From the UHGV virus genome UHGV-0241990: 13,531 nt of DNA. One strand, 5' to 3'. Positions 1 to 13,531 of this stretch are shown piece after piece. This stretch comes from a virus. A program made the translations under genes and the position numbers. Position 1 is the stretch's first letter. Each line of letters begins with the position of its first letter. The notes under the pieces were generated by a model. That model saw only the letters and a list, made by a program, of their open reading frames with translations. It searched no databases and was not told the DNA's origin.

Positions 1-829
1 CCACCATATCGCCTAACGCATGCGGCTGGAACTGTGGGACCAGATAAGCAGTATTCTCTGGCAGACTATCCATTTGCACCACACGCAGAGCTAAGCCCGG
101 AATGCGGAAGGTCGGGAAGCCCGGCAGAATATCCTCAGGGAACATCAGACCTTTGTCGGTAATATTCTGATTGCCGAACAACAGCACTTTACGGAGCAGT
201 TCATCAGTCTGAATTGCAGCAAAGAGCTCAGCACGGCAGAACAGGGTGAAACCACGCAGAGCGCGAACAACACCACGCTGTTTAACCTTGCTCAGTGCAA
301 CCAGGTCCTGCAGCTGTTTAAGGATATCTTGAGCTAGATCCACTTCTGAAGTGGTTTGCTGTGCGCCCAGCAGTTCGCACACATTCAGTTCTTTACCCTT
401 GGTAAGGATAATTTTGTTCTCAAAGAGAGCAAGCTGGCGTGCTTCTTCATGGGTCGCGCGTAGTCCTTCACCCAGTTGAATAACACGACGAGCGGTTACA
501 GACTCTAAATTCTCTTCGGAATCTTTGCCCGGAACACGGATACCTTGCCAGTCAGAAGGATAAATAGCACTTGATGCGGCAGTGAATGCCATATCACCCG
601 TGCCCGTTTCACGCTCATCTGCGGTAATGGTAGCCATCTGTTCACCGTAGCGCGGATACTGACCGAAAGCGGTTTGTTTCACCTGGCGAACTTTGTCATA
701 TTCAAATTTAAAGGTATTGCACAGGGCTGTAGTGTTGAAGATATCCATTGCTGAAATAATCTGGTTATCCAGCGGGATGTCTTTAATCAGACCACACAGA
801 TCGCGAACTTCAAATTCTTTCTTAGCCAT
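1..829 (-). CDS. putative major capsid protein (N-terminal ~276 codons; gene runs past window start)
   Basis: Minus-strand frame opens at ATG 829..827 and runs to position 1 with no stop (frame hand-checked over several segments). GGAGG Shine-Dalgarno at 840..836, 6 nt upstream. Begins MAKKEFEVRDL. Lies directly downstream of the decoration-like gene (lambda D-E type order). Capsid call is from context and protein character, not confirmed homology. Confidence 0.5.
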   Translation of the reverse strand, partial: MAKKEFEVRDLCGLIKDIPLDNQIISAMDIFNTTALCNTFKFEYDKVRQVKQTAFGQYPRYGEQMATITADERETGTGDMAFTAASSAIYPSDWQGIRVPGKDSEENLESVTARRVIQLGEGLRATHEEARQLALFENKIILTKGKELNVCELLGAQQTTSEVDLAQDILKQLQDLVALSKVKQRGVVRALRGFTLFCRAELFAAIQTDELLRKVLLFGNQNITDKGLMFPEDILPGFPTFRIPGLALRVVQMDSLPENTAYLVPQFQPHALGDMV

Positions 830-840
830 CTTCAACCTCC

Positions 841-1176
841 TTATTGTGCAACACGCAAATCGCCATTGCTGGCAGCAATAACAGCGGCTAAGCCTTCTTT
901 ATCCACGTAGGCCGGATTGATGTAGCAACCTTTGTTCGCAACAACGATAAAAGCGTCACCAACCTCAGCACGTTCTACAACCAGCAGCGGAGTTTTACCG
1001 GTGTGCGTTGCTTTAACGAATGTTTCAACCTCGCCTTCCTCAGTCACCACAACAACAGTGCCAGCCGGAATCTCAGCCTTAACTTTGTTTTTAATTTCAA
1101 CGTCGCGAATAGAAAATTGCTCATCTGCGGCGTATGAAATGATGTGTCCGCGTGTGCGGATAGTCATATCTCTCAT
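841..1176 (-). CDS. head decoration protein-like (lambda gpD / DUF2190-like), 111 aa
   Basis: ORF from track. AGGTGA SD just upstream of ATG at 1176; stop 841-843 abuts the SD of the next gene. Beta-rich core (PLLVVERAEVGDAFIVVANKGCYINPAYV) resembles the gpD-type decoration fold pattern (recalled, not searched). Confidence 0.55.
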   Translation of the reverse strand: MRDMTIRTRGHIISYAADEQFSIRDVEIKNKVKAEIPAGTVVVVTEEGEVETFVKATHTGKTPLLVVERAEVGDAFIVVANKGCYINPAYVDKEGLAAVIAASNGDLRVAQ

Positions 1177-1229
1177 TTGATCACCTGCGATTTAAATTAA
1201 CTCCCCTCAAAGAGTTCCGGTATAACCTC

Positions 1230-1620
1230 TCAAACCACGACAGGCTCGGGCCGAAAAGTTATGCCGGAAATCTAAAGGGAAATTGATACAAGGAGAGGGA
1301 GATAGCCCCGCACCGTAGCCAAGCGGGGGCTATTCCACATGGGGAAACCGACAACAGTCGGATGATAGTTCACAGTATGGGTTACGGTTACTAGAGAGCA
1401 CTATCACGAAAGGCACTCCCCCGGATCAGTTCAGGCTGCGGTCACATCAGCGGGGAAATACCTTTCGGGATAGCTACCCACACAGAAAACCCGCAAAAGA
1501 AAACTGTGTGGATAACTAGCCCAATAGGAGAATTAATCGACCACTCAACGATGATCAGGGTAGTGTTATTTATAAGGCGGCACCGCTACCTGGTCGCCTT
1601 TACTTTGGAGGAAAATACGG
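1230..1620. other. structured, ORF-free, locally GC-enriched segment (candidate leader or ncRNA)
   Basis: No ORF of 60 aa or more on either strand. Hairpin 1302-1333 (ATAGCCCC / GGGGGCTAT arms) and hairpin 1478-1511 (8-bp stem CCACACAG / CTGTGTGG). A 9/9 DnaA-box-like TGTGGATAA at 1507-1515. Confidence 0.25.
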
Positions 1621-1943
1621 CAAATCACTTTCACCATTGATTTACGGTATATGTATATTATATCAGTATTCTCTCAAATTGTCAACCCCCTTATTATATA
1701 AATTCTAATAATTAGCGTAGTAACGGTATTTTCAGACCTCTATCAATCCCATCAATACGTCATCTCATCGCATCTATCATAACTTTTTCATTCGTGATAG
1801 ATATCTTTTGATCAATATCAATGTTTTCCGGGGATTTACCCGGTTATAGTTCGAATCAAGGAAGGGTAGCATTGATAGAGACACCCAAAGGGGTGACTGA
1901 AAGTCACCTGGCATAGCCAGTGAAAGCACCCAACCGAGCAAAC

Positions 1944-1961
1944 AAATCAACTTCTCGCAAA
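1944..1961 (+). repeat. conserved 18-nt element AAATCAACTTCTCGCAAA, copy 1
   Basis: Identical to 2463-2480; ends exactly 11 nt before the ATG at 1973. Confidence 0.7.
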
Positions 1962-1972
1962 AGGTGATAGTT

Positions 1973-2095
1973 ATGGGTATCAAGAACAGTGCCAGCGCAT
2001 GGCAAAAGGCCAGGTTTCATCACCCACACATTGTTAAGGCAATTGAGGTGGTTGGAGTTTTAGCCCTGATGTTAGCTCTGTGTGTGGAGGTGTGA
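1973..2095 (+). CDS. small hydrophobic peptide, 40 aa (MGIKNSASAWQKARFHHPHIVKAIEVVGVLALMLALCVEV)
   Basis: Not in ORF track (below its apparent length cutoff). ATG 1973 with AAGGTGA SD 5 nt upstream; stop TGA 2093-2095. Basic N-terminus and predicted C-terminal TM helix. Preceded by the conserved 18-nt element. Confidence 0.4.
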   Translation: MGIKNSASAWQKARFHHPHIVKAIEVVGVLALMLALCVEV

Positions 2096-2173
2096 GATGG
2101 GCAAAGGAGGCAAAGTATTTTTAATAGGTCTGGCAGTCTTAGATTTTGTATTAATCATCATTGAGCGGAGTTT

Positions 2174-2434
2174 ATGACGGGAACTAAAGATATTAAGAGA
2201 CTGAGGGAAGAGCTGATAGCTGAAATTAAAGCTAAGGCAAAGCAAATGGAGATAGCCGCACAAATGGATGTAGCGGAACAGATGTACAAGATGGTTGAGG
2301 AGGGAACGCCACGACAGGTCATCGCTAAAACCTTCGGTGTGGGGATCGCCACCGTGCACAGAAGGCTAAAAGCCTATGCCGACTACCACAATATCGAAAG
2401 AAAGGAGGATGGGAGATTTAAGAAGAATAAATAG
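2174..2434 (+). CDS. small HTH DNA-binding protein, 86 aa
   Basis: ORF from track; GGAG SD before ATG 2174. Helical N-terminus followed by an HTH-like segment TPRQVIAKTFGVGIATVHRRLK (resolvase / sigma region 4-type pattern). Confidence 0.75.
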   Translation: MTGTKDIKRLREELIAEIKAKAKQMEIAAQMDVAEQMYKMVEEGTPRQVIAKTFGVGIATVHRRLKAYADYHNIERKEDGRFKKNK

Positions 2435-2462
2435 TGTGAACAGTCCACCAGGTTATTAACTT

Positions 2463-2480
2463 AAATCAACTTCTCGCAAA
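2463..2480 (+). repeat. conserved 18-nt element AAATCAACTTCTCGCAAA, copy 2
   Basis: Identical to 1944-1961; ends exactly 11 nt before the ATG at 2492; followed by GGGG SD-like bases. Confidence 0.7.
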
Positions 2481-2491
2481 GGGGTACCACT

Positions 2492-3202
2492 ATGTTTAAG
2501 GGAATTATTGTTACACTATTAGCTTGCATTGTATTTGGTCCATGGGTGTTAGTAATTGCTTTGCCTCTATTACTAGTGATGAGTGTAGGGAAAGATATTA
2601 AAAAGCTGCATGCACAATATAAAGAGCACCCTGGAGCAGTCATAACAAGTCTGGTTATAGTCGCGGGGCTTATTGGCTGGGCCTACTTCTCTCTTCCCAC
2701 AGGAAATACAGCTGCAAATGTGGAAGAGGTGAACTCACAGCATGAAGAAGTGGTTAACGTCTCCGATCTTACATGGGAGGACAGGGTAAAAGCATATAAA
2801 TATATTTATGGTGTGCTAGATTGCGATCTCTCTAAAGATATAGGATGCACAGATAAATACCAGATTCACGCCTGGCTGTGGAATCATGCAGAAAAAGGTG
2901 CTTGCAACCAGATTAAAGTGGCGGTTAACAGTGGGGCACCTACTGGGAAAAATAAAGATGTTCTGACGGTATGGTGCAAGGATGTAAAAGGCAATGATCG
3001 TTGGCTACAGATGCGCCACATGGACGGTGTAAGCATAGAAACTACACGAACGGCTCGATGGTATAACGGTGAACTCGTTCACGAAGCATGGCAGAATAAC
3101 GCCTGGATCACTGAGGGAACACTCCTGAATGTTGATATGGAAGCATTGAAGATGCTTAATGAGATGTACGGTGAAGCCGTAGAAACCTCTCCTATGAAAT
3201 AA
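2492..3202 (+). CDS. membrane-anchored protein, 236 aa (two N-terminal TM helices plus soluble Cys-containing domain)
   Basis: ORF from track. Hydrophobic stretches IIVTLLACIVFGPWVLVIALPLLLV and ITSLVIVAGLIGWAYF, then a ~170-aa hydrophilic domain with several Cys. Followed immediately by a strong terminator. Confidence 0.85.
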   Translation: MFKGIIVTLLACIVFGPWVLVIALPLLLVMSVGKDIKKLHAQYKEHPGAVITSLVIVAGLIGWAYFSLPTGNTAANVEEVNSQHEEVVNVSDLTWEDRVKAYKYIYGVLDCDLSKDIGCTDKYQIHAWLWNHAEKGACNQIKVAVNSGAPTGKNKDVLTVWCKDVKGNDRWLQMRHMDGVSIETTRTARWYNGELVHEAWQNNAWITEGTLLNVDMEALKMLNEMYGEAVETSPMK

Positions 3203-3218
3203 CCACACCAACCCACCA

Positions 3219-3245
3219 GGGGGCCATCACGGCCCCTTTTTTATT
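3219..3245 (+). terminator. rho-independent terminator
   Basis: GGGGCC (3220-3225) / GGCCCC (3231-3236) stem, ATCAC loop, then TTTTTTATTT; 17 nt after the stop of the 236-aa gene. Confidence 0.85.
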
Positions 3246-3248
3246 TAT

Positions 3249-3303
3249 CCCCTATTTAACCCCTATTTAATGGGTATTTAATGCCTATTTATTGATTTAA
3301 TGG
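3249..3303. repeat. five tandem 11-bp units with TATTTAA core
   Basis: cccctatttaa (3249), cccctatttaa (3260), tgggtatttaa (3271), tgcctatttat (3282), tgatttaatgg (3293). Period is one helical turn. Confidence 0.6.
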
Positions 3304-3783
3304 TTTTGGGCATTGTTGACAGTGTAAGAGAGAGGATGTAACCCTTTTTTGCAATACTAATAAAATCAATAGCTTAGCTCAATTGGCCTTTTCTCTATTT
3401 TTGTCAAATTTAACATACCCTCAAAAACTGCAAAATCTGGCTGCAAGATTATCTGCAGCTGGATTTCTTACACCTCAATTTGTAGTATCACCCTGACTAG
3501 TTTGTGCATAAAATGAACAGTTTTTAACATTTCCTATTCACCTGGTAACCACACAAAAAGCTAAAAACGAGGCACAGATAATCTTAGAGGCCTGTTTTCT
3601 TGTTATCACTCTGGGAACGTCGTAGAAGTGATTTTGATGAAAGATGACCTACCCTATTACACCCCCATTTTTTGTTATCACAATTGCATCCTGTGCGGTG
3701 TATGGCTGTGTGCTGAAAGCGGTCTTGGGTGTGGGTGTCAGAAATATCCATTAGCGGTATTAATACCCGTCAGATGTTCGTCT

Positions 3784-3820
3784 GAGGTGCCAGGCAGGCG
3801 CTCCCCCACCTCCCTTTTTT
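3784..3820 (+). terminator. orphan terminator-like hairpin plus T-run in non-coding DNA
   Basis: GAGGTG (3784-3789) pairs CACCTC (3807-3812) with GC-rich inner pairing, followed by CC TTTTTT (3815-3820). No annotated gene upstream on this strand. Confidence 0.4.
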
Positions 3821-4368
3821 CTTCTAACAATTCTCAAATATCACACCACTGCCGACCACGTTGCTATTATGTTAATTCTTAAGCTTTGCTGTATGTTGTG
3901 CACATTATTTATTCAGGTGGCTGTACGTAAATTCTGTGCCCACTGATCATGATTTTTAAATCAGATTTTGTAGTGCGCTTTATTAGTGTAGATAAGATCT
4001 ATTATGTTAAATGCAATTTTCCCAACCCTTCAAATCAATGACTTACATGTAAGCATGCACTAACACCCCACACAGCACATTAGACGTATAGATGGCTATA
4101 TCCCACATTTTTGATTGTTTTGTAGTCATTCCCCTGATCATTTAACCAGTATAGTTTGTTCTCTGTAGACCACAAAACCGGAATTTACATCTGATTAACA
4201 TAATCTGTTAGCATGATCACCATTACCCACACAACAATAACCCCATGCAAGCCTCTTCAGGCAATTTATCGGCGTGTTGGTGTGAACAGTCTTTCATGTT
4301 CTTTATGTATTCATTGTCCTGTGTGAGGGAAGGATGGACTGCCCCAGGGGCCATAGTTATGACACCCG

Positions 4369-4404
4369 GTCAACATAACTGTTGATAAAATCAACGGGTG
4401 TTGA
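4369..4404. promoter_or_regulatory. pair of palindromic operator-like sites TCAACA-N4-TGTTGA and ATCAAC-N4-GTTGAT
   Basis: 4369-4384 TCAACATAACTGTTGA and 4389-4404 ATCAACGGGTGTTGAT share half-site TCAAC / GTTGA; centres 20 bp apart. CCCCAGGGG palindrome at 4341-4349 just upstream. Confidence 0.45.
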
Positions 4405-4525
4405 TCTGCATATTTCCCACACATGAGAGAAAATCAAAGCAAAGAGAGAGGAGAGAGGTTTGCTAGTCAAAATAGGTCAATTGACGGCTAATACAGAGTA
4501 AAAAATCAGATGCAATCACTCCCCC

Positions 4526-4795
4526 ACCTGTTGGGATTTCCTACAACCCCTTTCAGTCATACTCAGGCACCACACCCCGGTAAATATTACCGCACTAACC
4601 TGTAAAGAATTTTCACACCTGTGTGTTTATACAGTCATACTCTCCTGTTTTGCAGTCATTGCACCCATGATACACAGCCCCTAACCTGTCAAAATATTTT
4701 ACTACCCCACCAATAATACGGCCCATACCTGTAAAATATTTTTACTACTACCTGTCAAAATCTTTTACTACTACCTGTAAAAATATTTGACACTA
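4526..4795. repeat. iteron array: ACCTGT-containing ~23-bp repeats with near-palindromic core GT(C)AAAATATTTTAC
   Basis: Well-conserved copies starting near 4598, 4684, 4727, 4750, 4773 (spacings 86, 43, 23, 23 bp). Degenerate ACCTGT/CCTGT copies at 4526, 4617, 4644. Inverted repeat CGGTAAATATTACCG at 4578-4592. Confidence 0.65.
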
Positions 4796-4825
4796 ATAGA
4801 TAAAGTAATAGACCACACAATAGAT

Positions 4826-4859
4826 CCCCCCCTAACCCCCCAGGGGGGAATGGGGAGGG
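4826..4859. repeat. homopolymer C/G tract palindrome (C7-TAA-C6-A-G6-AAT-G4-A-G3)
   Basis: Read directly: ccccccctaaccccccaggggggaatggggaggg. CCCCCC A GGGGGG centred at 4842. Shorter CCCCAGGGG relative at 4341-4349. Confidence 0.5.
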
Positions 4860-5377
4860 ATCAGAGAGTGGGGAAGGTTTTCTAAGGGAAAAGCTTAACC
4901 CACAAATGAAAGCCTAAAGAGCATTAGCGACTCTTTAGGCAATATGTGTGTGGGGGTGACAATGTATTCCATACATGACACGTCACCCAATTGTGTGTGG
5001 GAGTGCCTACGGCACCTTAGCCCATGGCTAAGCCCTTCGGGTCTGTGTGTGGTCCGGCGAATGCGTCAGCATGAGGCCCACATGTGGACCGCTGCCGAAA
5101 GCTTGCCAGCGCCGGAAGGAGGCAGCAAAGAGTCTCCCGCGCGGGTGCACGCACACATATATAAAGGATACACTCATAAATCGAAAATAAGCCCCCTAAA
5201 TGGCCTTCTGGCTGCATTAACTAGTGTGAGTAGTGCAATTGCATTACCTGACCTCTAAATCGCGTTAGAATCGATTTTAGAGCGCTTAAGGCAAAAAGTG
5301 CCCTCCCTTGTGGGCTTGCTTGTGTCTGCTGTGCAGGCTATGGCACCTATAGCACACCTAAATGATAATAATTCTCA

Positions 5378-5406
5378 TTGACAATTGGTTGACAATATGA
5401 TAAGAT
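5378..5406 (+). promoter_or_regulatory. sigma70-like promoter candidate P1 with duplicated TTGACAAT
   Basis: TTGACA 5378-5383, 17-bp spacer, TAAGAT 5401-5406 (4/6). A second TTGACAAT at 5389-5396, 11 bp downstream of the first. Confidence 0.4.
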
Positions 5407-5441: not shown

Positions 5442-5591
5442 GTGGAAATTACTGATGCAATAGCGATCATCAACCTGGCTGTACTGTGGTGCGGTGTTGC
5501 CTACATAGCCGGAGTAACTGCAATCGACAATCTTGAAGAAAAAATGATAGATAAATACAAAAAGATTGTTGACAATTTGACGAATGTCTGA
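5442..5591 (+). CDS. small GTG-initiated ORF, 49 aa, predicted TM helix (VEITDAIAIINLAVLWCGVAYIAGVTAIDNLEEKMIDKYKKIVDNLTNV)
   Basis: GGAGG at 5432-5436, 5 nt before GTG 5442; stop TGA 5589-5591. Not in track (short, non-ATG start). Protein-like composition, unlike the antisense track ORF 5406..5606. Confidence 0.3.
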   Translation: MEITDAIAIINLAVLWCGVAYIAGVTAIDNLEEKMIDKYKKIVDNLTNV

Positions 5592-5597
5592 TAAAAT
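5569..5597 (+). promoter_or_regulatory. near-consensus sigma70 promoter P2 for the plus-strand operon
   Basis: TTGACA 5569-5574, exactly 17-bp spacer, TAAAAT 5592-5597; predicted start ~5604, giving a ~120-nt leader before ATG 5725. Confidence 0.6.
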
Positions 5598-5724: not shown

Positions 5725-5940
5725 ATGGCTAAAACCGGACCGATCAGCCAGCTGGTAAACTGGACTACTGACGAAATCGTCGAGAACGTACTTAAGGGGA
5801 ACTTCCGCAAAACTTCCGTTTATGCATTCATTCGTAAACATAAAGGAGAATATCCACACATTGAAGAAGCAATTTTAAAACTAAATTGCATTCGCCTTGA
5901 GCGGGAACTGGCTAAATACACCAATAACATTAATAAATAA
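5725..5940 (+). CDS. hypothetical small protein, 71 aa
   Basis: ORF from track; AGGAGG SD 5711-5716, 8 nt before ATG 5725; first gene downstream of P2. Confidence 0.7.
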   Translation: MAKTGPISQLVNWTTDEIVENVLKGNFRKTSVYAFIRKHKGEYPHIEEAILKLNCIRLERELAKYTNNINK

Positions 5941-5953
5941 TTATGGGGGAATT

Positions 5954-6820
5954 ATGGCAAGTAATTACGGGGAAAATTTTACTCCCCTTTTTAAACGTTT
6001 CATCAAATACATTTTTAAAAATCCGATTGCAAAAACTACAACCAATAAAGAAAGATTTCACTTAAACTTGTTGGAAATGACAATTTACGGTGAGATGGCA
6101 AGTTTTAATGCTGCAGGTTGTGAAATATTTATCTCTGAACAGAGATTAGCAGACGATTATGATGTTTCAAGACCGACAGTTATTAACTCGATTAAATCTC
6201 TAGAAAATGCCGGGCTTATTTCAATAGTTAAAAGTAAAGGCAAATCTAATCATTACAAACTGCTAATTACCCCTGATCAGCTTGGCAAGATGTGTGATGA
6301 GCAGGGTATTAAAACCTCCGACAGTGTGGGATCTAGTAAAGAGGCCCCCGATAATCAACAGGAAGCCCCAAAACAACCCACACAGCAAGCTAAAAAGGCC
6401 GAGGTGGTGCAATTGCCTACCCAACCTAAGAACGAGCGCAGAGAGCGCTTTAGAGACGCTGGCAAACGTGAGAAAGATGAGCACGGTTATCCGATTCTGA
6501 CAAGTGATGAGATGAACGCCAAATACAAAGGGATTCAGGCAACATTTAAGGATCGGAAGAGCATTAAACTCTCTGAATTGCGAGATGCATTTTACGGGCC
6601 GGAGGTGATGGATAAAATTAAAGGCACCGTTGAGGGTAGAATCTGGAAAGAAGATGATTATTGGCATTTAACAGAACAGGCCCTTAAGGTGGCTCAACAT
6701 GTAGCTAAAAGAGGTAAAACAATTATCATCGATTATATTAGTCATGGCTATGATGCCCCGAAAGAAAGATTGTGGAACAACTGCAAGCTTGTAAAAGGCG
6801 AATTAACCATTACAAAATAA
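5954..6820 (+). CDS. winged-HTH DNA-binding protein, candidate replication initiator or iteron-binding regulator, 288 aa
   Basis: Track ORF 5897..6820; start moved to in-frame ATG 5954 (GGGGGA upstream, avoids 44-nt overlap with previous gene). HTH segment ISEQRLADDYDVSRPTVINSIKSLENAGLISIVK, a Q/P/K/E-rich linker, then a distinct C-terminal domain. Lies ~1.2 kb downstream of the iteron array. Confidence 0.8.
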   Translation: MASNYGENFTPLFKRFIKYIFKNPIAKTTTNKERFHLNLLEMTIYGEMASFNAAGCEIFISEQRLADDYDVSRPTVINSIKSLENAGLISIVKSKGKSNHYKLLITPDQLGKMCDEQGIKTSDSVGSSKEAPDNQQEAPKQPTQQAKKAEVVQLPTQPKNERRERFRDAGKREKDEHGYPILTSDEMNAKYKGIQATFKDRKSIKLSELRDAFYGPEVMDKIKGTVEGRIWKEDDYWHLTEQALKVAQHVAKRGKTIIIDYISHGYDAPKERLWNNCKLVKGELTITK

Positions 6821-6859
6821 ACATTCTTATTTTTTACAGTATTCTAAAGGAAATTTAAA

Positions 6860-7006
6860 ATGTATGGCGATCTTGATTATTACCTGGAAAAGGAAAAATA
6901 TTTTGAAGATGAACTATCACAACATTTTTCATATTGGGAAGAATATTGTGGTTGGTTAGCTGAAGATCCAGCAGATGAAGAAAATGATTCTGACATCCCT
7001 TATTAA
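6860..7006 (+). CDS. tiny acidic protein, 48 aa (MYGDLDYYLEKEKYFEDELSQHFSYWEEYCGWLAEDPADEENDSDIPY)
   Basis: Not in track (short). AAGGA SD 8 nt before ATG 6860; stop TAA 7004-7006. Fills the otherwise empty gap between flanking genes. Strongly acidic with aromatic residues. Confidence 0.45.
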   Translation: MYGDLDYYLEKEKYFEDELSQHFSYWEEYCGWLAEDPADEENDSDIPY

Positions 7007-7104
7007 TTAATATCCCCTGTTATCCCCAAACAAACTAAATAAACAAACTAAGCACTAGAACTAGATTGATTGCCCTGATCTTTTAAACGTTCGGAGAATT
7101 AATC

Positions 7105-7593
7105 ATGTTCAAATCTGATCTTTCTGATTCCCAATTTGAAAAACTGGTAGCACTGCAGAAATATCTCCCCAGTGATGATCAACCAACACGACAGGCTAAA
7201 CACTTATTAGTCGAGGGCTTTACCCCTGAATTCGTGGCGGAATATACAGGCGTTAAACTTGAGAAAGTCCAAAAACTATATAATGAGTCCTGGAATCCAC
7301 GGTGTCGAGTTCCCCTCAGTGTCTACAACGAAATAGATAGAGATAGAAATGTCTTCGAAGATCGCCGCCGCAAATCTCTTTTAATGTGGAATTGTGGGAT
7401 GAATATTGAAGAGATAGCAAAAGAATTAAAAGTAACCTGCTTTCATATCTGGGGCTTGTTGAGTGAAATCCTGCCACGTAAGGAGCTTAATCAACGTTTG
7501 CCTAAGCCCGGTAGTCGTGCTTATCGCGAATTTATATTCATCTACCGCCGCCATAGAAATAAAGTCCAGAAAGCAATGGCCCAGAAAGCCTAA
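7105..7593 (+). CDS. putative DNA-binding protein with two sigma region 4-like HTH segments, 162 aa
   Basis: ORF from track; GGAG SD 8 nt before ATG 7105. HTH-like segments FTPEFVAEYTGVKLEKVQKL and MNIEEIAKELKVTCFHIWGLLSEIL; basic C-terminus. Confidence 0.8.
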   Translation: MFKSDLSDSQFEKLVALQKYLPSDDQPTRQAKHLLVEGFTPEFVAEYTGVKLEKVQKLYNESWNPRCRVPLSVYNEIDRDRNVFEDRRRKSLLMWNCGMNIEEIAKELKVTCFHIWGLLSEILPRKELNQRLPKPGSRAYREFIFIYRRHRNKVQKAMAQKA

Positions 7594-7666
7594 GTTTTAT
7601 CTCTTCGATTTATTTATTTTCGACTCACTTTAACCCCTTCCGGGGCTCTAATTTAAGGAATTCCAA

Positions 7667-8110
7667 ATGTCTCAAATCGCTAAATTATTATCCCAGGTAA
7701 TCAAAGCTTTCGACGCTGAAGATTCAAAAGTTCGCCAGGATCTTTTAGATGGCAAGTTTACCAACACCCTGGCATTTACCCGTGACAAAGAGCACTTCTT
7801 AAAACACAGACACCACGCTTTTGCTGAATGCAAGTCCGCTAATGGTGATGTTTTCTATGTCGATTTGGTGGTTATGGCATGTAGGCTGTGGATGATTCAG
7901 GACCTTATGCGCCAACACGGTGATGATCCTCTTATCAGCATGTGGAACAGCGCCCAGGATGGCTTTGTGATTGCTGCCTTATCCAAATCAATGATTGAGG
8001 CAGAAGGGGCAAGCCTTCAGAACATGGCAGATCTCTTTGAAATAAGCGTAGGAATGATGCAGACCATGCTCCAAGCTGTCAAACCTCTCAAACTGGTTAA
8101 TCTTGATTAA
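7667..8110 (+). CDS. hypothetical protein, 147 aa
   Basis: ORF from track; AAGGA SD 7 nt before ATG 7667. No recognisable motif. Confidence 0.8.
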   Translation: MSQIAKLLSQVIKAFDAEDSKVRQDLLDGKFTNTLAFTRDKEHFLKHRHHAFAECKSANGDVFYVDLVVMACRLWMIQDLMRQHGDDPLISMWNSAQDGFVIAALSKSMIEAEGASLQNMADLFEISVGMMQTMLQAVKPLKLVNLD

Positions 8111-8170
8111 GCTATTGATAAATAAGCACTCCCCATTTTTTGGGGGGTGCATCAATGAGAGGATATGCCT

Positions 8171-8554
8171 ATGAATATTGAAGAAATGATAGTTGAATTC
8201 GAAGAGGGTGATTTCCTGGAAGAAGGGGAGTTTAGTTACTCCCATTTTAAACAGGCGTTATTTAGCAGCGATGATAAACCACACGTTAGTGATCTTAACG
8301 ACGATGATTTATGTCGTTGGGTATGCACCCGCTTAAATGAAGATGGAAAGTATACAGGCCAAAACTTTCCAAATCTCTATTTCAAAGCACAAACATTTGA
8401 GGAAGGGCAAAGAGTGAAAAACCTGGTCGATAAAATGCTGTCAGCCGGATATTTGCATAAAGAATTATTAAATCCTAAAGCTGAAAGCAAGCGCCATTAT
8501 ATTTTTGTGTGGACTATTGGCGATAAGTGTCCACTAAGACGCAAAGGCAAATGA
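8171..8554 (+). CDS. hypothetical acidic protein, 127 aa (129 aa if started at 8165)
   Basis: Track ORF 8165..8554. GAGAGGA at 8157-8163 is only 1 nt from ATG 8165 but 7 nt from ATG 8171, so 8171 preferred. Stop TGA 8552-8554 lies 1 nt before the next ATG. Confidence 0.7.
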   Translation: MNIEEMIVEFEEGDFLEEGEFSYSHFKQALFSSDDKPHVSDLNDDDLCRWVCTRLNEDGKYTGQNFPNLYFKAQTFEEGQRVKNLVDKMLSAGYLHKELLNPKAESKRHYIFVWTIGDKCPLRRKGK

Positions 8555-8555
8555 T

Positions 8556-8792
8556 ATGAATATCTACGAAAAGATTTATCAAAAACTGGTTAAGGACTCC
8601 GAAGACACGCCCGAAGGGGTGACAATAGGTCACCTGCCAGAGGCAGCGAAAGAGGGGTCCACCATTATTAAAAGTAGCTCCCACACAGAAGGCCTCTCAA
8701 TCGAAGAGCTGGCGGAGAAATATAATATTGATAAAGAGGCCCTGAAAAGGGCTATTTCATTATCAAAATCTTTAAGACAGGGCGAGGTATAA
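8556..8792 (+). CDS. hypothetical protein, 78 aa
   Basis: ORF from track; tightly packed between neighbours (stop 8790-8792, next ATG 8794), consistent with translational coupling. Confidence 0.7.
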   Translation: MNIYEKIYQKLVKDSEDTPEGVTIGHLPEAAKEGSTIIKSSSHTEGLSIEELAEKYNIDKEALKRAISLSKSLRQGEV

Positions 8793-8793
8793 A

Positions 8794-10935
8794 ATGGCAA
8801 TGAAGGAAGTAGCCAGACTAACAAACGTTATTTACTGGGACTCTGATAAATCCTCCTGGCGAAAAGAAGTTAAACGGCTTGAGGATTATAAAAAATCCTG
8901 GAAGAAAGCTACCGACGATATAGCTAAAGCTGATTTTAAATCTAATCAGGCTGTGCTCAGAACACAAAGAACACGCGCTAAGGTGGAAGAGCAGATAGCC
9001 AGAGCTCAGAGGAAACAACAGGAAGCACAGAAGAAACAACGTGCTCAGGCTGTCAGCCGTCTGACCGGGGGCAACAATGCCGAACTTAACTCTATGCGCA
9101 AGTTCTACCAACAACAAGCCAGAGAAGCCGCCAGACAACAAAAACTGTTAGATCGTAGTGTTGGAGATGTTCAGCACAGAAAAGCACGTGTAGGGGCCAA
9201 CAGTGCACGAATCAGCAGCATGTTTGATGGATCCCTGGTTGCTCAGTTCCAAAGCAGAATCCAGAGAGTTAATGCTGATTATGCTAAAGGGGCTATTAAC
9301 CTGCAGACCTATAATCAGAAAATGGCCCGACTCAGAGCTGAAATGAAGATGGCCTCTAGAGATGCCACCACCTTTCAAAGCAAGCTAGATAAACTGGCAG
9401 CAGGTGCGAGCAAGGTGCATAACAATATCGGCAAGCTTAACAGTGCTTTAGGCAAGATAGCCATTGGCCTGACCGCTGCAGGATGGGGTATTCAGAGAGC
9501 TGTTAGTGGTGCTATGAGCGCTCAATCTGACCATAACTCAGCCTATTATGGTTTGCTTGCTCAGAACAAGGATGATAAAGCCAAGACTGACCAGCAGATG
9601 GCTTTTATCGAGAACACAGCCAACACCTACGGGATGGATCAGCGTGAGATGGAGGGTGGCTATATGCGTTTTGCTGCCGCTACTCCCACCATGAAGGAAT
9701 CTGATAAGCAGGCTCTTTTTGAGGCTATGGCGATTAAAGGCCGCTCAGTGGGTGCTACTGGCGAGCAACAGAACAGGGCGCTTGTTGCGGTCCAACAAAT
9801 GGCTTCAAAAGGAAGAGTAGCTGCGGAAGAGCTGCGTGGCCAGCTGTCAGAAGCCTTTGCAGGCTCACAACAGGATTTTCAACAGGCCGCTATTGATGCC
9901 GGAATCATCAAGAGTGCCCAGGAATTCGATAAAGCCATGGCAGATGGCAAAATCACCCTGGACAAGCTTCTTCCCTCTCTAGTGAAAATCTGGGGTGCTG
10001 CAAAAGAAACTGACGCTTTTGCTAAATCTATGCAACAGCCTGAAGTGGCACTGCAGAGAATGAGCAACCAGTTTTTTAAACTAAAGCAATCCTTTATGGG
10101 TGTTGTGGATCCTGCGGATGGCGTCATTACCCTGTCAGAATCCCTTATTTATATCTTTGAAGATTTATCCTCAATTTTCAGTAGCTCAGGTGAAGATGCC
10201 AAATCTCTCGGAGTTATGTTAGGCGAGGCAATGCATGAAATTTATTTTTGGGTCAACTGGGCTTGGTGGTGGACTAAGAAGATCGCCAAAGGCATTGGTG
10301 AGACGTTAGGCTGGACCGCACAGGATGCAGGCGAGAAGATTGGCCAGGTTGTGACCGCCCTGTTAGGCCTGAAGGTTGCAACAAGCATTGCTGGCATGGT
10401 TGGCGGCCTTATTTCCATGCTGTGGAAACTTAAAGCGGCGCTTAGTGCTTTAGTCGGTGTTGGTGATATCAGCACTGGAGGCACAGCAGGCAAAGGCAGA
10501 CCAGGTAGAGGCGGCTTTATCGGGAAAGCAGGCAGACTTGGAGGAAGATTTGCAGGTCCGGCAGGGATTGTTTTGACAGGATTTGACATTGCAAATAGCT
10601 TAGATTCCTACTGGCAGAATCCTGATAATCAGCGGCAGGAAGGAGCTAAACATCCTGAATGGTTAACCAGTATGGTTAATAGTGCTTCTAGCTTCCTTGG
10701 CCTTGATTATCGTCTGGACGCAGGACGCTACATTACCAGACCAACACCAACGGGTGGTATTGCTATTCAGAATGGAGGCTATCAGCCGACTCAAATCAGT
10801 GTAGTTCCGCAGGGTGAGATCTCCGGCAAGTGGGAGATAACCATTGATGAGGGGGGAATTGCCAGGGTGATCCAGAAGGAAGTCAGCGATCAGCTGGATT
10901 GGAAAGCCACACAGGAAGCTAATCAGCTTTTCTAA
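8794..10935 (+). CDS. tape-measure-like protein, 713 aa
   Basis: ORF from track. Long charged Q/K/R/E-rich helical N-terminus; central segment GEQQNRALVAVQQMASKGRVAAEELRGQLSEAFAG resembling the conserved tape-measure domain (recalled). Hydrophobic segments (VVTALLGLKVATSIAGMVGGLISMLW) and a Gly-rich stretch (GGTAGKGRPGRGGFIGKAGRLGGRFAG). Confidence 0.8.
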   Translation: MAMKEVARLTNVIYWDSDKSSWRKEVKRLEDYKKSWKKATDDIAKADFKSNQAVLRTQRTRAKVEEQIARAQRKQQEAQKKQRAQAVSRLTGGNNAELNSMRKFYQQQAREAARQQKLLDRSVGDVQHRKARVGANSARISSMFDGSLVAQFQSRIQRVNADYAKGAINLQTYNQKMARLRAEMKMASRDATTFQSKLDKLAAGASKVHNNIGKLNSALGKIAIGLTAAGWGIQRAVSGAMSAQSDHNSAYYGLLAQNKDDKAKTDQQMAFIENTANTYGMDQREMEGGYMRFAAATPTMKESDKQALFEAMAIKGRSVGATGEQQNRALVAVQQMASKGRVAAEELRGQLSEAFAGSQQDFQQAAIDAGIIKSAQEFDKAMADGKITLDKLLPSLVKIWGAAKETDAFAKSMQQPEVALQRMSNQFFKLKQSFMGVVDPADGVITLSESLIYIFEDLSSIFSSSGEDAKSLGVMLGEAMHEIYFWVNWAWWWTKKIAKGIGETLGWTAQDAGEKIGQVVTALLGLKVATSIAGMVGGLISMLWKLKAALSALVGVGDISTGGTAGKGRPGRGGFIGKAGRLGGRFAGPAGIVLTGFDIANSLDSYWQNPDNQRQEGAKHPEWLTSMVNSASSFLGLDYRLDAGRYITRPTPTGGIAIQNGGYQPTQISVVPQGEISGKWEITIDEGGIARVIQKEVSDQLDWKATQEANQLF

Positions 10936-10980
10936 CTGGTTGATAATAAAAGCCCCTCGGGATTTGTCATCCTTTGGGGC

Positions 10981-10992
10981 TCAACTTCTCGC
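10981..10992 (+). repeat. third copy of the core TCAACTTCTCGC
   Basis: Exact 12-nt match to the core of the 18-nt element at 1944 and 2463; lies just after a hairpin (10953-10981) downstream of the tape-measure-like gene. No start codon at the 11-nt distance. Confidence 0.5.
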
Positions 10993-11389
10993 CTGGCAAG
11001 TGTGATCATCTGCAGAGAGAAAGTCAACTCTCTTTCTGTTCACGTTTGATCATTCATACCGTTTGTTTTATATTCATCAGTGGAAACAGATCCCAGAGGT
11101 TAACGCGACCTCTAAGAGAAAATAAGCGTCTATGATCTGGAGTATCTTGTAGAGCACTGGGCTTGATGCGGCCTCACCCTAACCAAGGTGATAAACAGGC
11201 AAACGTTGGTGGTTCTGCTCTCTTACCCGGCAATAAGTGATAAGCCAAAACTAAGAGATGCCCACACGGTTTCACCGCACCGGAATATAAGCAGGTACCT
11301 GATAAAGCTGATCTACATGAAAACCTGAAAACCCCTAAATGATGCTAGTGTTTCTCCTTACCACCAACACGGCATCAAAAAGAGTTCTA

Positions 11390-11418
11390 TTGTCTGAATT
11401 CAGGATTTTGGCTATAAT
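11390..11418 (+). promoter_or_regulatory. sigma70-like promoter for the 49-aa ORF
   Basis: TTGTCT 11390-11395, 17-bp spacer, perfect TATAAT 11413-11418. Confidence 0.55.
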
Positions 11419-11452
11419 GTAGGCGTAGCAGGTCATAAGAAGGGGTGACACT

Positions 11453-11602
11453 ATGAAGAATGCCAATGCCATTAAGCGAAATAACCGCAAGATTCACGCT
11501 CGCAAGTTTCTCAAGACTGAAGAAGGCCGGAAATGGTTAGAAGAGAAGCAGAAGGAACGGCAGGAGATAAAGCTTGTGCGGGAATTATCCCAGTTTATCT
11601 AA
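11453..11602 (+). CDS. small basic protein, 49 aa (MKNANAIKRNNRKIHARKFLKTEEGRKWLEEKQKERQEIKLVRELSQFI)
   Basis: Not in track (short). AAGGGGTGA SD before ATG 11453; stop TAA 11600-11602. Own promoter and terminator. Confidence 0.6.
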   Translation: MKNANAIKRNNRKIHARKFLKTEEGRKWLEEKQKERQEIKLVRELSQFI

Positions 11603-11612
11603 TCTCAGAGAG

Positions 11613-11639
11613 AGGGGCTATCAGGCCCCTTTCTTGTCT
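11613..11639 (+). terminator. rho-independent terminator
   Basis: AGGGGC (11613-11618) / GCCCCT (11625-11630) stem, 6-nt loop, then TTCTTGTCT. Overlaps the stop codon of the convergent minus-strand gene. Confidence 0.6.
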
Positions 11640-12079
11640 ATGTCTACCCAGTATTTGATTGCACCGATCAAATCATCATAGTGGCGCATTGCATCATTGA
11701 AGCCTTTATAGCTTGCCCATTGTGGGGAAACCTTGTTATTGCTGAATTGCCCACTAATCAGGATAGTCTCCAAAATGTCGGCGTATCGCTTGCCAATTCG
11801 CTTTCTGACGGCCTCAGAGCTCCCACCCTTTACGATTGCATTAATCAGGGCTTTTGTGTGTCTCAGGCTCTCATAGAGCATTGCAGCGTGGGCAGACTCC
11901 ATAAATGAGCGCTTAGGCAAATCACCCCACCCCTCAGAGTGGATAGCCGCCAGTGTGGCGTAATTCAGGCCGCTATAGTGTTTCCCGTCATCCCAGCCAA
12001 CCGCTACACCTTCCATCTGTGAGAGCTCTTTATGCAGCTTATCCATCATGCGCTTGTCTATGGTGCACCGGACTTTCAT
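11621..12079 (-). CDS. putative virion morphogenesis protein, 152 aa
   Basis: ORF from track; start ATG overlaps the stop of the upstream gene (ATGA at 12076-12079). Segment VGWDDGKHYSGLNYATLAAIHSEGWGDLPKRSF is reminiscent of small head-tail or tail-completion proteins (weak, recalled). Confidence 0.75.
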   Translation of the reverse strand: MKVRCTIDKRMMDKLHKELSQMEGVAVGWDDGKHYSGLNYATLAAIHSEGWGDLPKRSFMESAHAAMLYESLRHTKALINAIVKGGSSEAVRKRIGKRYADILETILISGQFSNNKVSPQWASYKGFNDAMRHYDDLIGAIKYWVDIDKKGA

Positions 12080-12843
12080 TTTGTAGCATCCTTGGCAAAT
12101 TTGGCTTGCCTTTGCTGATCATAAATGTCTTTTGTGCTCATAGCCCCATCATTTTCATCGAGCAAAGTTTGTAAATTTTTAGGCTTAGCCGATGGGGTGT
12201 TGGTTGAGTTCCCGACGTTGCTATTCTTCTCAGCACTGTTAACAGCACCCTTTTGCTGTGTTTTATTCACCTTCTTACTGTTAGTGAAAACTCCGGCATT
12301 TTCGACCATCTTCACCTTGAAGGTGCGGAATTCTTCAAAAGTGCAATCAATAGTGATGCAGTCGCCAGAGGAAGAGCTACGCTTAACTTCACATTTCGTC
12401 ATGATGAAGTTCTCAAGAAGTCCGGCATCTTCACTAACCAGGCTAACCAGCTGGCGCTTGTCTCTCATTTCCATAAGTGCCTGAACAGCGGCAGCAGGGC
12501 GCATAGATTCACGGGGATTATCTGGATCAGTGTTCCGGTCGATGTAGTTCTCTTTCCGGATGATATGAGGGGAAGAGGTAACAATACCCGTAAAGCTGAC
12601 AGATTTATCTTTAATGACGGCATGGTCTGACATGGTGGTGCCATCCTCGACCGCATAGCTCGATTTCTCAACAGGGAACGAATAGCTGACATCAGAGATA
12701 GAGTCAAAGAAGATAGCCACATTATCGGTATAGTTGAAGCCATCCATTATATTTTTGTTTTGTGAATATCCCCCACACATAACAGTGAATGCAGGAGATC
12801 TCGACTCAGCTTGTTTTGCAGCTGTTAGAGCATCATTAGCCAT
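12076..12843 (-). CDS. hypothetical protein, likely structural, 255 aa (258 aa if started at 12852)
   Basis: Track ORF 12076..12852. GAGG SD is 1 nt from ATG 12852 but 10 nt from ATG 12843, so 12843 preferred. Beta-rich N-terminal part, low-complexity polar C-terminus. Confidence 0.75.
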   Translation of the reverse strand: MANDALTAAKQAESRSPAFTVMCGGYSQNKNIMDGFNYTDNVAIFFDSISDVSYSFPVEKSSYAVEDGTTMSDHAVIKDKSVSFTGIVTSSPHIIRKENYIDRNTDPDNPRESMRPAAAVQALMEMRDKRQLVSLVSEDAGLLENFIMTKCEVKRSSSSGDCITIDCTFEEFRTFKVKMVENAGVFTNSKKVNKTQQKGAVNSAEKNSNVGNSTNTPSAKPKNLQTLLDENDGAMSTKDIYDQQRQAKFAKDATK

Positions 12844-12948
12844 ATTGAACATGCCTCAAAAATGAATCTTTTCGTTGCCCTGCTTAAAATCTGCAGAAAA
12901 TACAGGGCAGTTATTCGTTAGAATCGCTTATAGCTCTTCCCGAGAGCG

Positions 12949-13209
12949 TTATTTTGCAAAACGATTATGGGCATTCAGGGCTTTTTTGCGGTCCTGTGCC
13001 TGTTTGCGTGCAATAAAATGTTCGAAAGTCTCGGCCCAGGTGCATTTATTATATTCACGGTATTTATGCATAGCCTGGCGGCTAACGTCATAGCAGGCGG
13101 CAAATGTGGAGATACGCAGGAATTCCGGCAGATCCTCGTCATCGATATGGATAATATCAAAAGGCACGTCGTCACGGTCGCCGTATAAAACAATTTTCAT
13201 AAAAGACAC
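12949..13209 (-). CDS. hypothetical small protein, 86 aa, possible HTH (AACYDVSRQAMHKY)
   Basis: ORF from track; GAGGTG SD 5 nt upstream of ATG 13209. Acidic N-terminus. Sits just downstream (minus sense) of a terminator. Confidence 0.7.
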   Translation of the reverse strand: MSFMKIVLYGDRDDVPFDIIHIDDEDLPEFLRISTFAACYDVSRQAMHKYREYNKCTWAETFEHFIARKQAQDRKKALNAHNRFAK

Positions 13210-13295: not shown

Positions 13296-13319
13296 GGCCT
13301 TCGAAGAAGGACCTTATTT

Positions 13320-13531
13320 AGCCTTGGCTTTTGCCAGAGCAGCGGCGGCGGAGTTACTAACACTCACTTTAACCACAACCTCAGGCATCATGTTCATGAA
13401 AGCATAAGAGGATTCAATGAAGATTTCTCGTTTACCTCTGGACTCTTCCATATACATGAAAGCTTCACGTGCAGCGCCGTTTGCAAGCTTCAGGTTGCGA
13501 GCGCAAGGGCCGAAAAATTGAGTATAAACGC
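13320..13531 (-). CDS. C-terminal 70 codons of an upstream protein (ends ...VSNSAAAALAKAKAK)
   Basis: Minus-strand open frame from window edge to stop TAA at 13322-13320, hand-translated. Followed by the bidirectional terminator. Confidence 0.55.

Follow-up and report, generated by a model that had tools for sequence, protein, structure and literature searches.

UHGV virus genome UHGV-0241990, a stretch of 13,531 nucleotides that we refer to in its full length as the window, represents a complete Escherichia coli plasmid of about 13.5 kb in circularly permuted form, and the protein encoded at 8794-10935 is, by every test we applied to its sequence, a genuine tail tape measure protein (TMP). 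We consider it probable (about 60%) that this plasmid is a satellite, or 'hitcher', of rV5-like virulent myophages (Vequintavirus and relatives), which would swap its own TMP and tail-tube initiator into chimeric tails. We would give roughly even odds to the broader proposition that small (13-21 kb) autonomous E. coli plasmids form a widespread superfamily of dedicated satellites of virulent rV5-like myophages, which build doubly hybrid virions, with a capsid protein of their own and an exchanged tail core of TMP, tube initiator and connector factor upon sheath, tube, baseplate, portal and terminase of the helper, and which attract helper factors by means of mimicked hairpins and CCCACACA sites.

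An earlier note, made from the letters of the window, had described the 713-aa product as TMP-like, and profile searches bear this out. PF20155 (TMP_3) matches residues 260-435 with 53.7 bits, well over its cut-off of 41 bits (E 2.9e-14, Pfam), TIGR02675 matches with 31.4 bits against a cut-off of 21.35, and the protein belongs to the Vequintavirus TMP family phrog_5255 (E 1.9e-139, PHROG profile), on which the TMP of an rV5-type helper itself scores 1130 bits. With the single TMP sequence as query, phmmer found the phiTE TMP from the solved virion (chain 9cuy_W, E 4.2e-21) and gp017 of Bas63 (E 3.5e-14). The predicted layout of the protein is typical of TMPs, with a charged, helical region (residues 1-200), the TMP_3 core (260-435), an aromatic patch (484-493), a hydrophobic segment (516-557), a Gly-rich stretch (551-600) and a conserved C-terminal domain (640-713). 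As helper genome for comparison we used the Vequintavirus MaxTheCat (135 kb), whose TMP is 24.7% identical to that of the plasmid over the full length (tblastn, E 2e-19). The plasmid TMP and the rV5-type TMP align collinearly over their entire length, both termini are conserved, and the nine residues MRKFYQQQA are invariant. At 713 versus 778 aa, the plasmid protein is 65 residues shorter, the loss lying mostly in the N-terminal helical part. In the phiTE virion, a TMP of 811 aa corresponds to about 102 nm, and its C-terminus docks onto the puncturing device (PMC11972413).

The partner of this TMP is a Dit-like tail-tube initiator, which matches PF21821 (E 3.8e-25), phrog_5197 (E 5e-100; the helper protein reaches E 5.6e-147 on the same profile) and the tube initiator chain of phiTE (9cuy_K, E 2.7e-34), and which is 45.6% identical to the 'tail tube initiator' of MaxTheCat (tblastn, E 7e-62). 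In phiTE, the tube initiator is the first hexameric ring upon the hub (PMC11972413); by the light of this structure, the plasmid therefore holds both the ruler, the TMP, and the ring from which the ruler grows. The earlier note had seen no distal tail gene flanking the TMP gene, but the initiator gene lies 1.1 kb downstream in convergent orientation, with the gene g152 between them. The collinearity with rV5-type TMPs and the presence of the partner protein beside it point to a structural role of the plasmid TMP in the hybrid tails of a satellite.

One could instead imagine that a TMP homolog was recruited to a role outside the virion, as a membrane-active, entry-exclusion or lysis protein, with the other phage genes being unrelated cargo; the earlier note, too, had considered a TMP-like protein with another role. 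The hydrophobic segment, the variable C-terminal third and the lack of a chaperone pair upstream would fit this. We nevertheless regard it as very unlikely, since the protein follows rV5-type TMPs end to end, including both termini, which dock in the virion, and is linked to a tube initiator without exception, across at least five divergent families of elements. Among seven plasmids, moreover, the TMP allele type co-varies with the C-terminal tail of the initiator, an observation that is suggestive only. Another role is thus not needed to account for a TMP that travels with its partner.

That the window is a closed replicon follows from the gene for the major capsid protein (MCP), whose open reading frame (ORF) continues over the window ends, from 829 to 1 and then from 13531 to 13314. 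In megablast searches, the sequence was present in 7 of 5,426 complete E. coli genomes, each time on a plasmid and in no case on a chromosome. Of these seven records, six are circular and 13.2-13.7 kb in size, while the seventh (NZ_CP043822.1, 39.6 kb) holds three copies; the six plasmids compared carry an identical set of 16 genes in identical order. The element also occurs in hundreds of contigs of about 13.5 kb, none of them chromosomal, and its gene order is the same in isolates from five continents. The exact TMP sequence was found in 51 contig blocks, mostly of 10-20 kb and none with chromosomal flanks, and contigs with TMP homologs down to 71% identity are all 13.3-14.3 kb long. One ENA contig (NODE_350, 26.7 kb, our L013) is a head-to-tail dimer of the element. 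This dimer and the trimer in NZ_CP043822.1 could have arisen in assembly or could be genuine multimers or concatemers, and the latter would be relevant to headful packaging. MOB-suite classes the plasmid as non-mobilizable (PLSDB lists only this mobility type and no replicon type), and neither an integrase gene (Pfam, PHROGs) nor a chromosomal copy was detected. The plasmid is non-conjugative and, judging from its Rep-like gene and iterons, replicates autonomously.

The closure of the circle also decides about the mosaic junction or rearranged morphogenesis module that the earlier note had proposed, in which the remaining tail genes of a complete phage would lie outside the window. There is a step in GC content from the upstream genes (0.38-0.44) to the TMP gene (0.48), and modules are re-assorted among sister plasmids, as one might expect of such a junction. 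However, the window closes on itself, complete circular records of equal size exist, and the dimer and trimer assemblies repeat only the same 16 genes, so that this explanation is refuted and keeps next to no probability. What the window contains is instead the complete, conserved gene set of a family of 13.5-kb circular plasmids; there is nothing beyond its edges to inspect, as the note had advised. Likewise, the apparent distance of 8 kb between the TMP and capsid genes is an artefact of linearisation, the 3' end of the MCP gene being 2.4 kb from the TMP stop codon on the circle.

On this circle, the minus-strand structural operon runs in the order g111, MCP, g86, tube initiator and g152 (Table 1). 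It converges with the TMP gene, 686 bp separating the two stop codons. The MCP matches phrog_29 (E 5.9e-20) and is 24% identical to the MCP of MaxTheCat (tblastn, E 5e-10); its best solved relative is the phiTE MCP (E 6e-4). Among 50,697 phage records, tblastn gave no MCP match at E 1e-6 or better, and homologs outside the plasmid family did not turn up; the MCP cluster alone has 441 members. The g152 protein matches phrog_222 (E 1.6e-29) and is 41.7% identical to bas57_0011 of MaxTheCat (tblastn, E 6e-35), which in the helper neighbours an adaptor gene and a head-completion gene. We rejected g152 as a virion neck protein, its helper ortholog being absent from the solved phiTE and phi92 models, and by homology class it as a connector-module gene whose place in the virion is unproven. 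At the head of the operon, g111 has no family match in the PHROG search, but a weak homolog lies upstream of the MCP gene in a distant element (L017, see below); sequence support for its being a homolog of the helper decoration protein, whose place it occupies, was absent. Genes for terminase, portal, protease, scaffold, sheath, tube, baseplate wedge, fibre or lysis proteins were not detected in the window (Pfam, PHROGs). As in satellites generally, the complete set of virion and packaging genes is thus lacking, and the context indeed differs, as the earlier note had said, from a conventional tail module: phage-like products are limited to the MCP, TMP, tube initiator and g152.

Table 1. Features of the 13,531-nt window, ordered by position; the MCP gene spans the window ends.
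Feature	Position	Strand	Remarks
MCP, 5' part	1-829	-	ORF runs off window position 1
g111	841-1176	-	first gene of structural operon; in the place of the decoration gene of the helper
Structural-operon promoter and leader	1177-1685	-	consensus sigma-70 promoter 1685-1657, 12/12 matches
48-nt double-hairpin mini-element	1877-1924	+	second copy at 8603-8653, in frame within g78
HTH_7 protein	2174-2434	+	accessory / hot-spot locus
Variable membrane protein	2492-3202	+	236 aa; accessory / hot-spot locus
11-bp tandem repeats	3242-3291		directly after terminator of membrane-protein gene
Conserved noncoding DNA	3300-4400		repeated CCCACACA motifs
Iterons	4583-4794		22-23 nt, 5-6 copies; probable replication origin
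Hairpin island	5082-5146	+	65 nt; common to Vequintavirus genomes
Two sigma-70 promoters	5378-5406, 5569-5597	+	mutually similar; flank 49-aa ORF 5442-5591
g71	5725-5940	+	first gene of plus-strand operon
Rep-like winged-helix initiator	5897-6820	+	likeliest start 5954, 288 aa
g162	7105-7593	+	predicted tandem helix-turn-helix protein; 46% identity to counterpart in sister element L015
g147	7667-8110	+	conserved
g129	8165-8554	+	127-129 aa; orphan, predicted winged-helix core
g78	8556-8792	+	small protein, C-terminal helix-turn-helix (Pfam); translationally coupled to TMP
TMP	8794-10935	+	ATG ORF, 713 aa
Hypervariable cassette	10936-11620		between convergent operons; basic 49-aa ORF 11453-11602
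g152	11621-12079	-	homolog of Vequintavirus connector-module gene bas57_0011
Tail-tube initiator, Dit-like	12076-12852	-	258 aa in window, 255-258 aa across family
g86	12949-13209	-	83-86 aa, between MCP and tube initiator; 94-100% conserved
MCP, 3' part	13314-13531	-	ORF wraps circle; 348 aa in all

Comparison of the window plasmid with six sister plasmids, seven in all, places the four structural genes under purifying selection, with ratios of non-synonymous to synonymous substitution (dN/dS) of 0.07-0.31 for the TMP, 0.09-0.24 for the tube initiator, 0.09-0.16 for g152 and 0.06-0.13 for the MCP, and without frameshifts. This bears on the idea that the plasmid is what decay has so far left of a larger phage-plasmid or prophage, its structural genes having no present function. 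The incomplete virion gene set and the large noncoding stretches, of about 1 kb and about 2.5 kb, could be taken that way. But dN/dS values between 0.06 and 0.31 in intact genes, an identical gene order across continents, noncoding DNA that is conserved beyond synonymous sites and the retention of the same core by several divergent lineages leave decay with only a slim chance, somewhat below that of a TMP outside the virion.

Within the family, modules re-assort. One sister plasmid (L002) shares a TMP allele of 98.7% identity with the window at a Rep identity of 46%, while another (L007) has a Rep of 99% and a TMP of 71% identity. Searching with the tube initiator uncovered further small elements, with initiators of 41-61% identity. 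L015 (14.9 kb) has the architecture of the window plasmid, with 59% identity in the initiator, 50% in g152, 38% in the TMP and 46% in g162. L017, from E. coli (15.2 kb), encodes an MCP of 29%, an initiator of 48% and a TMP of 29% identity, set in another backbone that features a resolvase and AntA. L018 and L019, also from E. coli (19 kb), carry the initiator, the TMP and a g152-like gene in this order on one strand, and L020 (CP057043; 20.7 kb, 20,690 bp) is a complete circular plasmid of the same type. Together with L012, which is filed under a Clostridia metagenome-assembled genome (MAG), probably through a binning error, these make at least four further lineages of 14.9-20.7 kb with a Dit-like initiator and an rV5-type TMP. 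Their backbones differ, featuring resolvase, AntA, tyrosine recombinase, HNH and Lambda_Kil genes; the constant core is formed by TMP and tube initiator, and g152 and MCP are present in some only. A scan of species-representative genomes with the tube initiator returned one 20-kb MAG contig, a distant relative with Rep- and Dit-like genes; the same scan with the TMP gave no match.

The molecular link to the rV5-type lineage is specific and, as read from sequence, consists of four homologous proteins and two noncoding islands. The four plasmid proteins share their PHROGs with the helper counterparts (TMP 5255, initiator 5197, g152 222, MCP 29), and the GC content is 44.0% in the plasmid and 43.6% in the helper. 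The first island, a 48-nt double hairpin, occurs in MaxTheCat at 90900-90951 and 93061-93110. Among the 50,697 phage records, it was found in only 66 genomes, all of Vequintavirus type, at 80-90% identity. At both plasmid sites, its presence or absence is polymorphic and varies independently among sister plasmids; it has the looks of a very small element, mobile or recombining, that is traded between plasmid and phage. The second island, a 65-nt hairpin, was found in only 119 of the same records, of rV5 type, at 83-85% identity. Its stem reads GCTGCC/GGCAGC in the window and ACCGAC/GTCGGT in the phage, amounting to three compensatory pairs around a conserved 24-nt loop, and in L002 another hairpin lies between the same flanks. 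This hairpin near the origin may be an RNA or a protein-binding cassette. Genomes with either island are 131-144 kb in size and of the Escherichia/Shigella Vequintavirus type, with the copies mostly in unannotated DNA, and both islands are far closer to the phage than any of the proteins. In addition, the heptamer CCACACA has 19 sites in the plasmid versus 1.5 expected, mostly in noncoding DNA. The (C)CCACACA sites lie mainly at 1478-5052 of the window and are mostly kept in all sister plasmids; in the helper, CCACACA is concentrated in two noncoding zones, 90-93 kb and 130.8-131.8 kb, which also hold the islands. The motif could serve a protein of the helper or the plasmid as a binding site.

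Two database curiosities surfaced along the way. 'Campylobacter phage' records MG0656xx (about 135-140 kb) have a TMP, an initiator and noncoding islands identical to those of rV5-type coliphages, and are probably mislabelled or contaminant Vequintavirus genomes. PLSDB lists a circular E. coli 'plasmid' of 137,565 bp (CP057073, strain RHB39-C03) that is an rV5-like phage genome; it and CP057043 (strain RHB39-C22) come from different isolates of one cattle-faeces sample series (RHB39).

For the satellite we envisage the following sequence of events. When an rV5-like phage infects, the plasmid TMP and initiator would displace those of the phage in the baseplate hub and tube lumen and nucleate tails on helper hubs, upon which helper tube and sheath would polymerise. 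Sheath, tube, baseplate, fibres, portal and terminase would come from the phage, and the chaperone pair of the helper would be borrowed. The resulting chimeric tail should be about 8-10 nm shorter, based on 65 residues at 1.26-1.5 Å per residue. The plasmid MCP would build, or redirect assembly towards, small capsids sized for 13.5 kb, as we propose from our own comparison with P4 and SaPI capsids. Finally, the shared noncoding hairpins and CCCACACA sites could let helper factors act on plasmid DNA in replication, transcription or packaging.

Several points weigh against this scenario. Helper dependence is inferred throughout, and no terminase subunit, pac/cos site or tail assembly chaperone was recognised in the window. 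An MCP without its own portal, scaffold or protease would have to fit helper partners at 24% identity, and neither g152 nor bas57_0011 matches a chain of the phiTE and phi92 virions, both solved. Even the closest homologs in phages reach only 24-50% identity, too low to name the true helper. A nucleotide search with the whole window against the 50,697 phage records and an IMG/VR scan with the TMP gave no match, so that the plasmid has never been seen in virion-derived data. Both operons, furthermore, have near-consensus sigma-70 promoters, which suggests helper-independent expression, unless this is repressed or is attenuated by the structured leader of the structural operon.

These promoters are also the starting point for the main rival explanation, that of an anti-phage interference element, in which the diverged TMP, initiator, connector protein and MCP would act as poison subunits or decoys that abort rV5-like assembly, with the plasmid itself remaining unpackaged. 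Strong sigma-70 promoters suggest expression before infection, interference with tail assembly is a known defence strategy (PMC11364771), and PLE11, too, blocks helper tails (PMC12987554). No packaging function is recognised in the window, and the presence of a variable accessory locus and of a variable cassette is reminiscent of defence hot spots. However, four full-length, collinear structural proteins under purifying selection exceed the needs of a decoy, the size range is tight (13.2-14.3 kb over hundreds of copies), a non-mobilizable yet widespread and recombining plasmid needs a transfer route, and PADLOC found no defence system in the window. On balance we hold interference to be unlikely as the sole function, albeit the strongest of the alternatives; by analogy with PLE, it may coexist with a satellite role.

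The TMP gene is the last in a tightly spaced, same-strand gene string (5725-10935) that has Rep-like winged-helix and helix-turn-helix (HTH) proteins at its start, in agreement with the earlier description of an operon opening with DNA-binding proteins. The Rep-like protein matches phrog_270 (E 4.7e-12) as well as HTH_36 and HTH_11 (Pfam), and a winged-helix Rep with direct repeats nearby is the arrangement of an iteron-type replicon. Iteron region and Rep alleles co-vary among plasmids, as would incompatibility types. Directly upstream of the TMP gene, the helper has a canonical chaperone pair (phrog_3840) with an open -1 frame and a slippery TTTTTTC. In the plasmid, g78 lies in the +1 frame of g129, a slippery heptamer is absent and the ORFs are separated by 1-nt spacers, which upholds the statement that a -1 frameshift cannot join the two upstream ORFs. 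As tail assembly chaperones, g129 and g78 were rejected: they have neither a PHROG or Pfam chaperone match nor similarity to the helper chaperones, g129 is modelled as a winged helix, and g78 has an HTH and the wrong frame for a -1 frameshift. Their predicted winged-helix and HTH domains mark these ORFs as putative regulators or small DNA-binding proteins. Among 1.84 billion representative proteins, g129 has three matches, two of them genuine relatives and both of these from sister elements. The product of g78 has 78 aa with the 48-nt mini-insertion and 61 aa without it.

Two of the noncoding regions are well conserved. The 474-nt leader of the structural operon (1177-1650) has a fold z-score of -6.7 versus shuffled sequence and diverges by only 2.6% among plasmids, and the 1.1 kb at 3300-4400, which lack a credible ORF, diverge by 4.7%, compared to 11-19% at the synonymous sites of the MCP gene (dS 0.11-0.19). 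The leader may be regulatory, perhaps gating the expression of the capsid and tail genes. The three promoters at 1657-1685 (minus strand), 5378-5406 and 5569-5597 (both plus strand) share the extended sequence TTGACAATT...TGATA.AAT, which suggests one repressor/operator logic common to both operons. Rfam gave no match in the window, including 3300-4400, whether gathering thresholds were applied or E values of up to 1 admitted, and there are no tRNAs in the window. In most sister plasmids, the 236-aa membrane protein, for which there is no PADLOC match, is swapped for unrelated genes of 173-195 aa. The cassette between the convergent operons diverges by 45% among sister plasmids, with large indels, yet over 581 nt it matches L017 (4475-5049), an element that is otherwise distant, at 73% identity.

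Should the satellite reading hold, satellites of tailed phages would for the first time be seen to reside on plasmids, and E. coli would have its first satellites whose helper is strictly lytic. This reading would explain the spread of hundreds of 'non-mobilizable' E. coli plasmids, and chimeric tails, a strategy so far demonstrated for Vibrio PLE and ICP1 only, would reach E. coli and plasmids. The system offers a tractable model, as the BASEL collection includes rV5-like phages, the natural carriers include strains 7_14_47A, E275a and JNE25-003, and complete genomes of plasmid-bearing strains are on record, and it could help to answer how a satellite TMP wins over that of the helper in tail assembly. 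Since rV5-like phages are common candidates for therapy and biocontrol, a resident parasite or blocker matters for phage efficacy. In our literature search, neither this plasmid family nor any satellite of rV5 turned up as described, while in public databases the plasmids are present under automatic names ('tape measure protein', 'major capsid protein', 'phage baseplate protein'). A 2025 review knows of one plasmid satellite, of a (filamentous) inovirus, and states that there may be others still undiscovered (PMC12282955).

Among known systems, phage-plasmids of the P1, N15 and SSU5 types resemble our plasmid in being extrachromosomal replicons with phage genes, but they encode complete virions, which a plasmid of 13.5 kb and 16 genes cannot. 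P4, the E. coli satellite of P2, can likewise persist as a multicopy plasmid and has a genome of 11.6 kb, suited to a small capsid; unlike our plasmid, it has no virion structural protein, relies on a temperate helper and encodes Sid/Psu, the alpha primase and an integrase, and no homology was detected. Closer in content are the cf-PICIs, satellites of about 13-15 kb with their own MCP and, in some reported cases, a putative tmp (Extended Data Fig. 10 legend in PMC12987554). However, these are chromosomal, steal tails only and carry an integrase, portal, protease/scaffold, head-tail connectors and TerS, none of which we detected in the plasmid (Pfam, PHROGs). The EPIPs of Mycolicibacterium (bioRxiv 2025, PMC12822802) are reported to have a TMP and an MCP and a tail length that differs from that of the helper, but they differ in their actinobacterial host, siphophage prophage helper, serine integrase, TerS, scaffold and free infective particles. 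The Vequintavirinae themselves (rV5, MaxTheCat; phiTE, PDB 9CUY/9MJN, PMC11972413) have proteins of the same PHROG families as the four of the plasmid, at only 24-46% identity; they place a -1 frameshift chaperone pair before the TMP gene, where the plasmid has two ORFs for predicted DNA-binding proteins, and they have some 40 other virion genes that the plasmid lacks.

The closest parallel is provided by PLE of Vibrio. Satellite-encoded TMPs were first reported in 2025-2026, and PLE encodes its own TMP, tail assembly chaperone and hub protein, which are 20%, 20% and 41% identical to those of ICP1 (Mathur, Boyd et al., Nature 2026, PMC12987554). Tails that take up the TMP and the hub protein (BhuB) of PLE are 10 nm shorter, and deletion of tmp lowers PLE transduction by 96-99.9% (PMC12987554). 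PLE is integrated, has an integrase and uses the ICP1 coat protein, whereas the plasmid is an autonomous replicon of the iteron type, with its own MCP and connector-module gene and no recognisable tail assembly chaperone. In both cases, however, a small element exploits, or in the case of the plasmid would exploit, a large virulent myophage, and neither encodes sheath, tube or fibres. Both bring their own TMP (about 20-25% identity to that of the helper) and a hub-proximal protein (about 41-46%), the PLE proteins being compared by description only, and in both the TMP is shorter than that of the helper, by 95 aa in PLE and by 65 aa in the plasmid.

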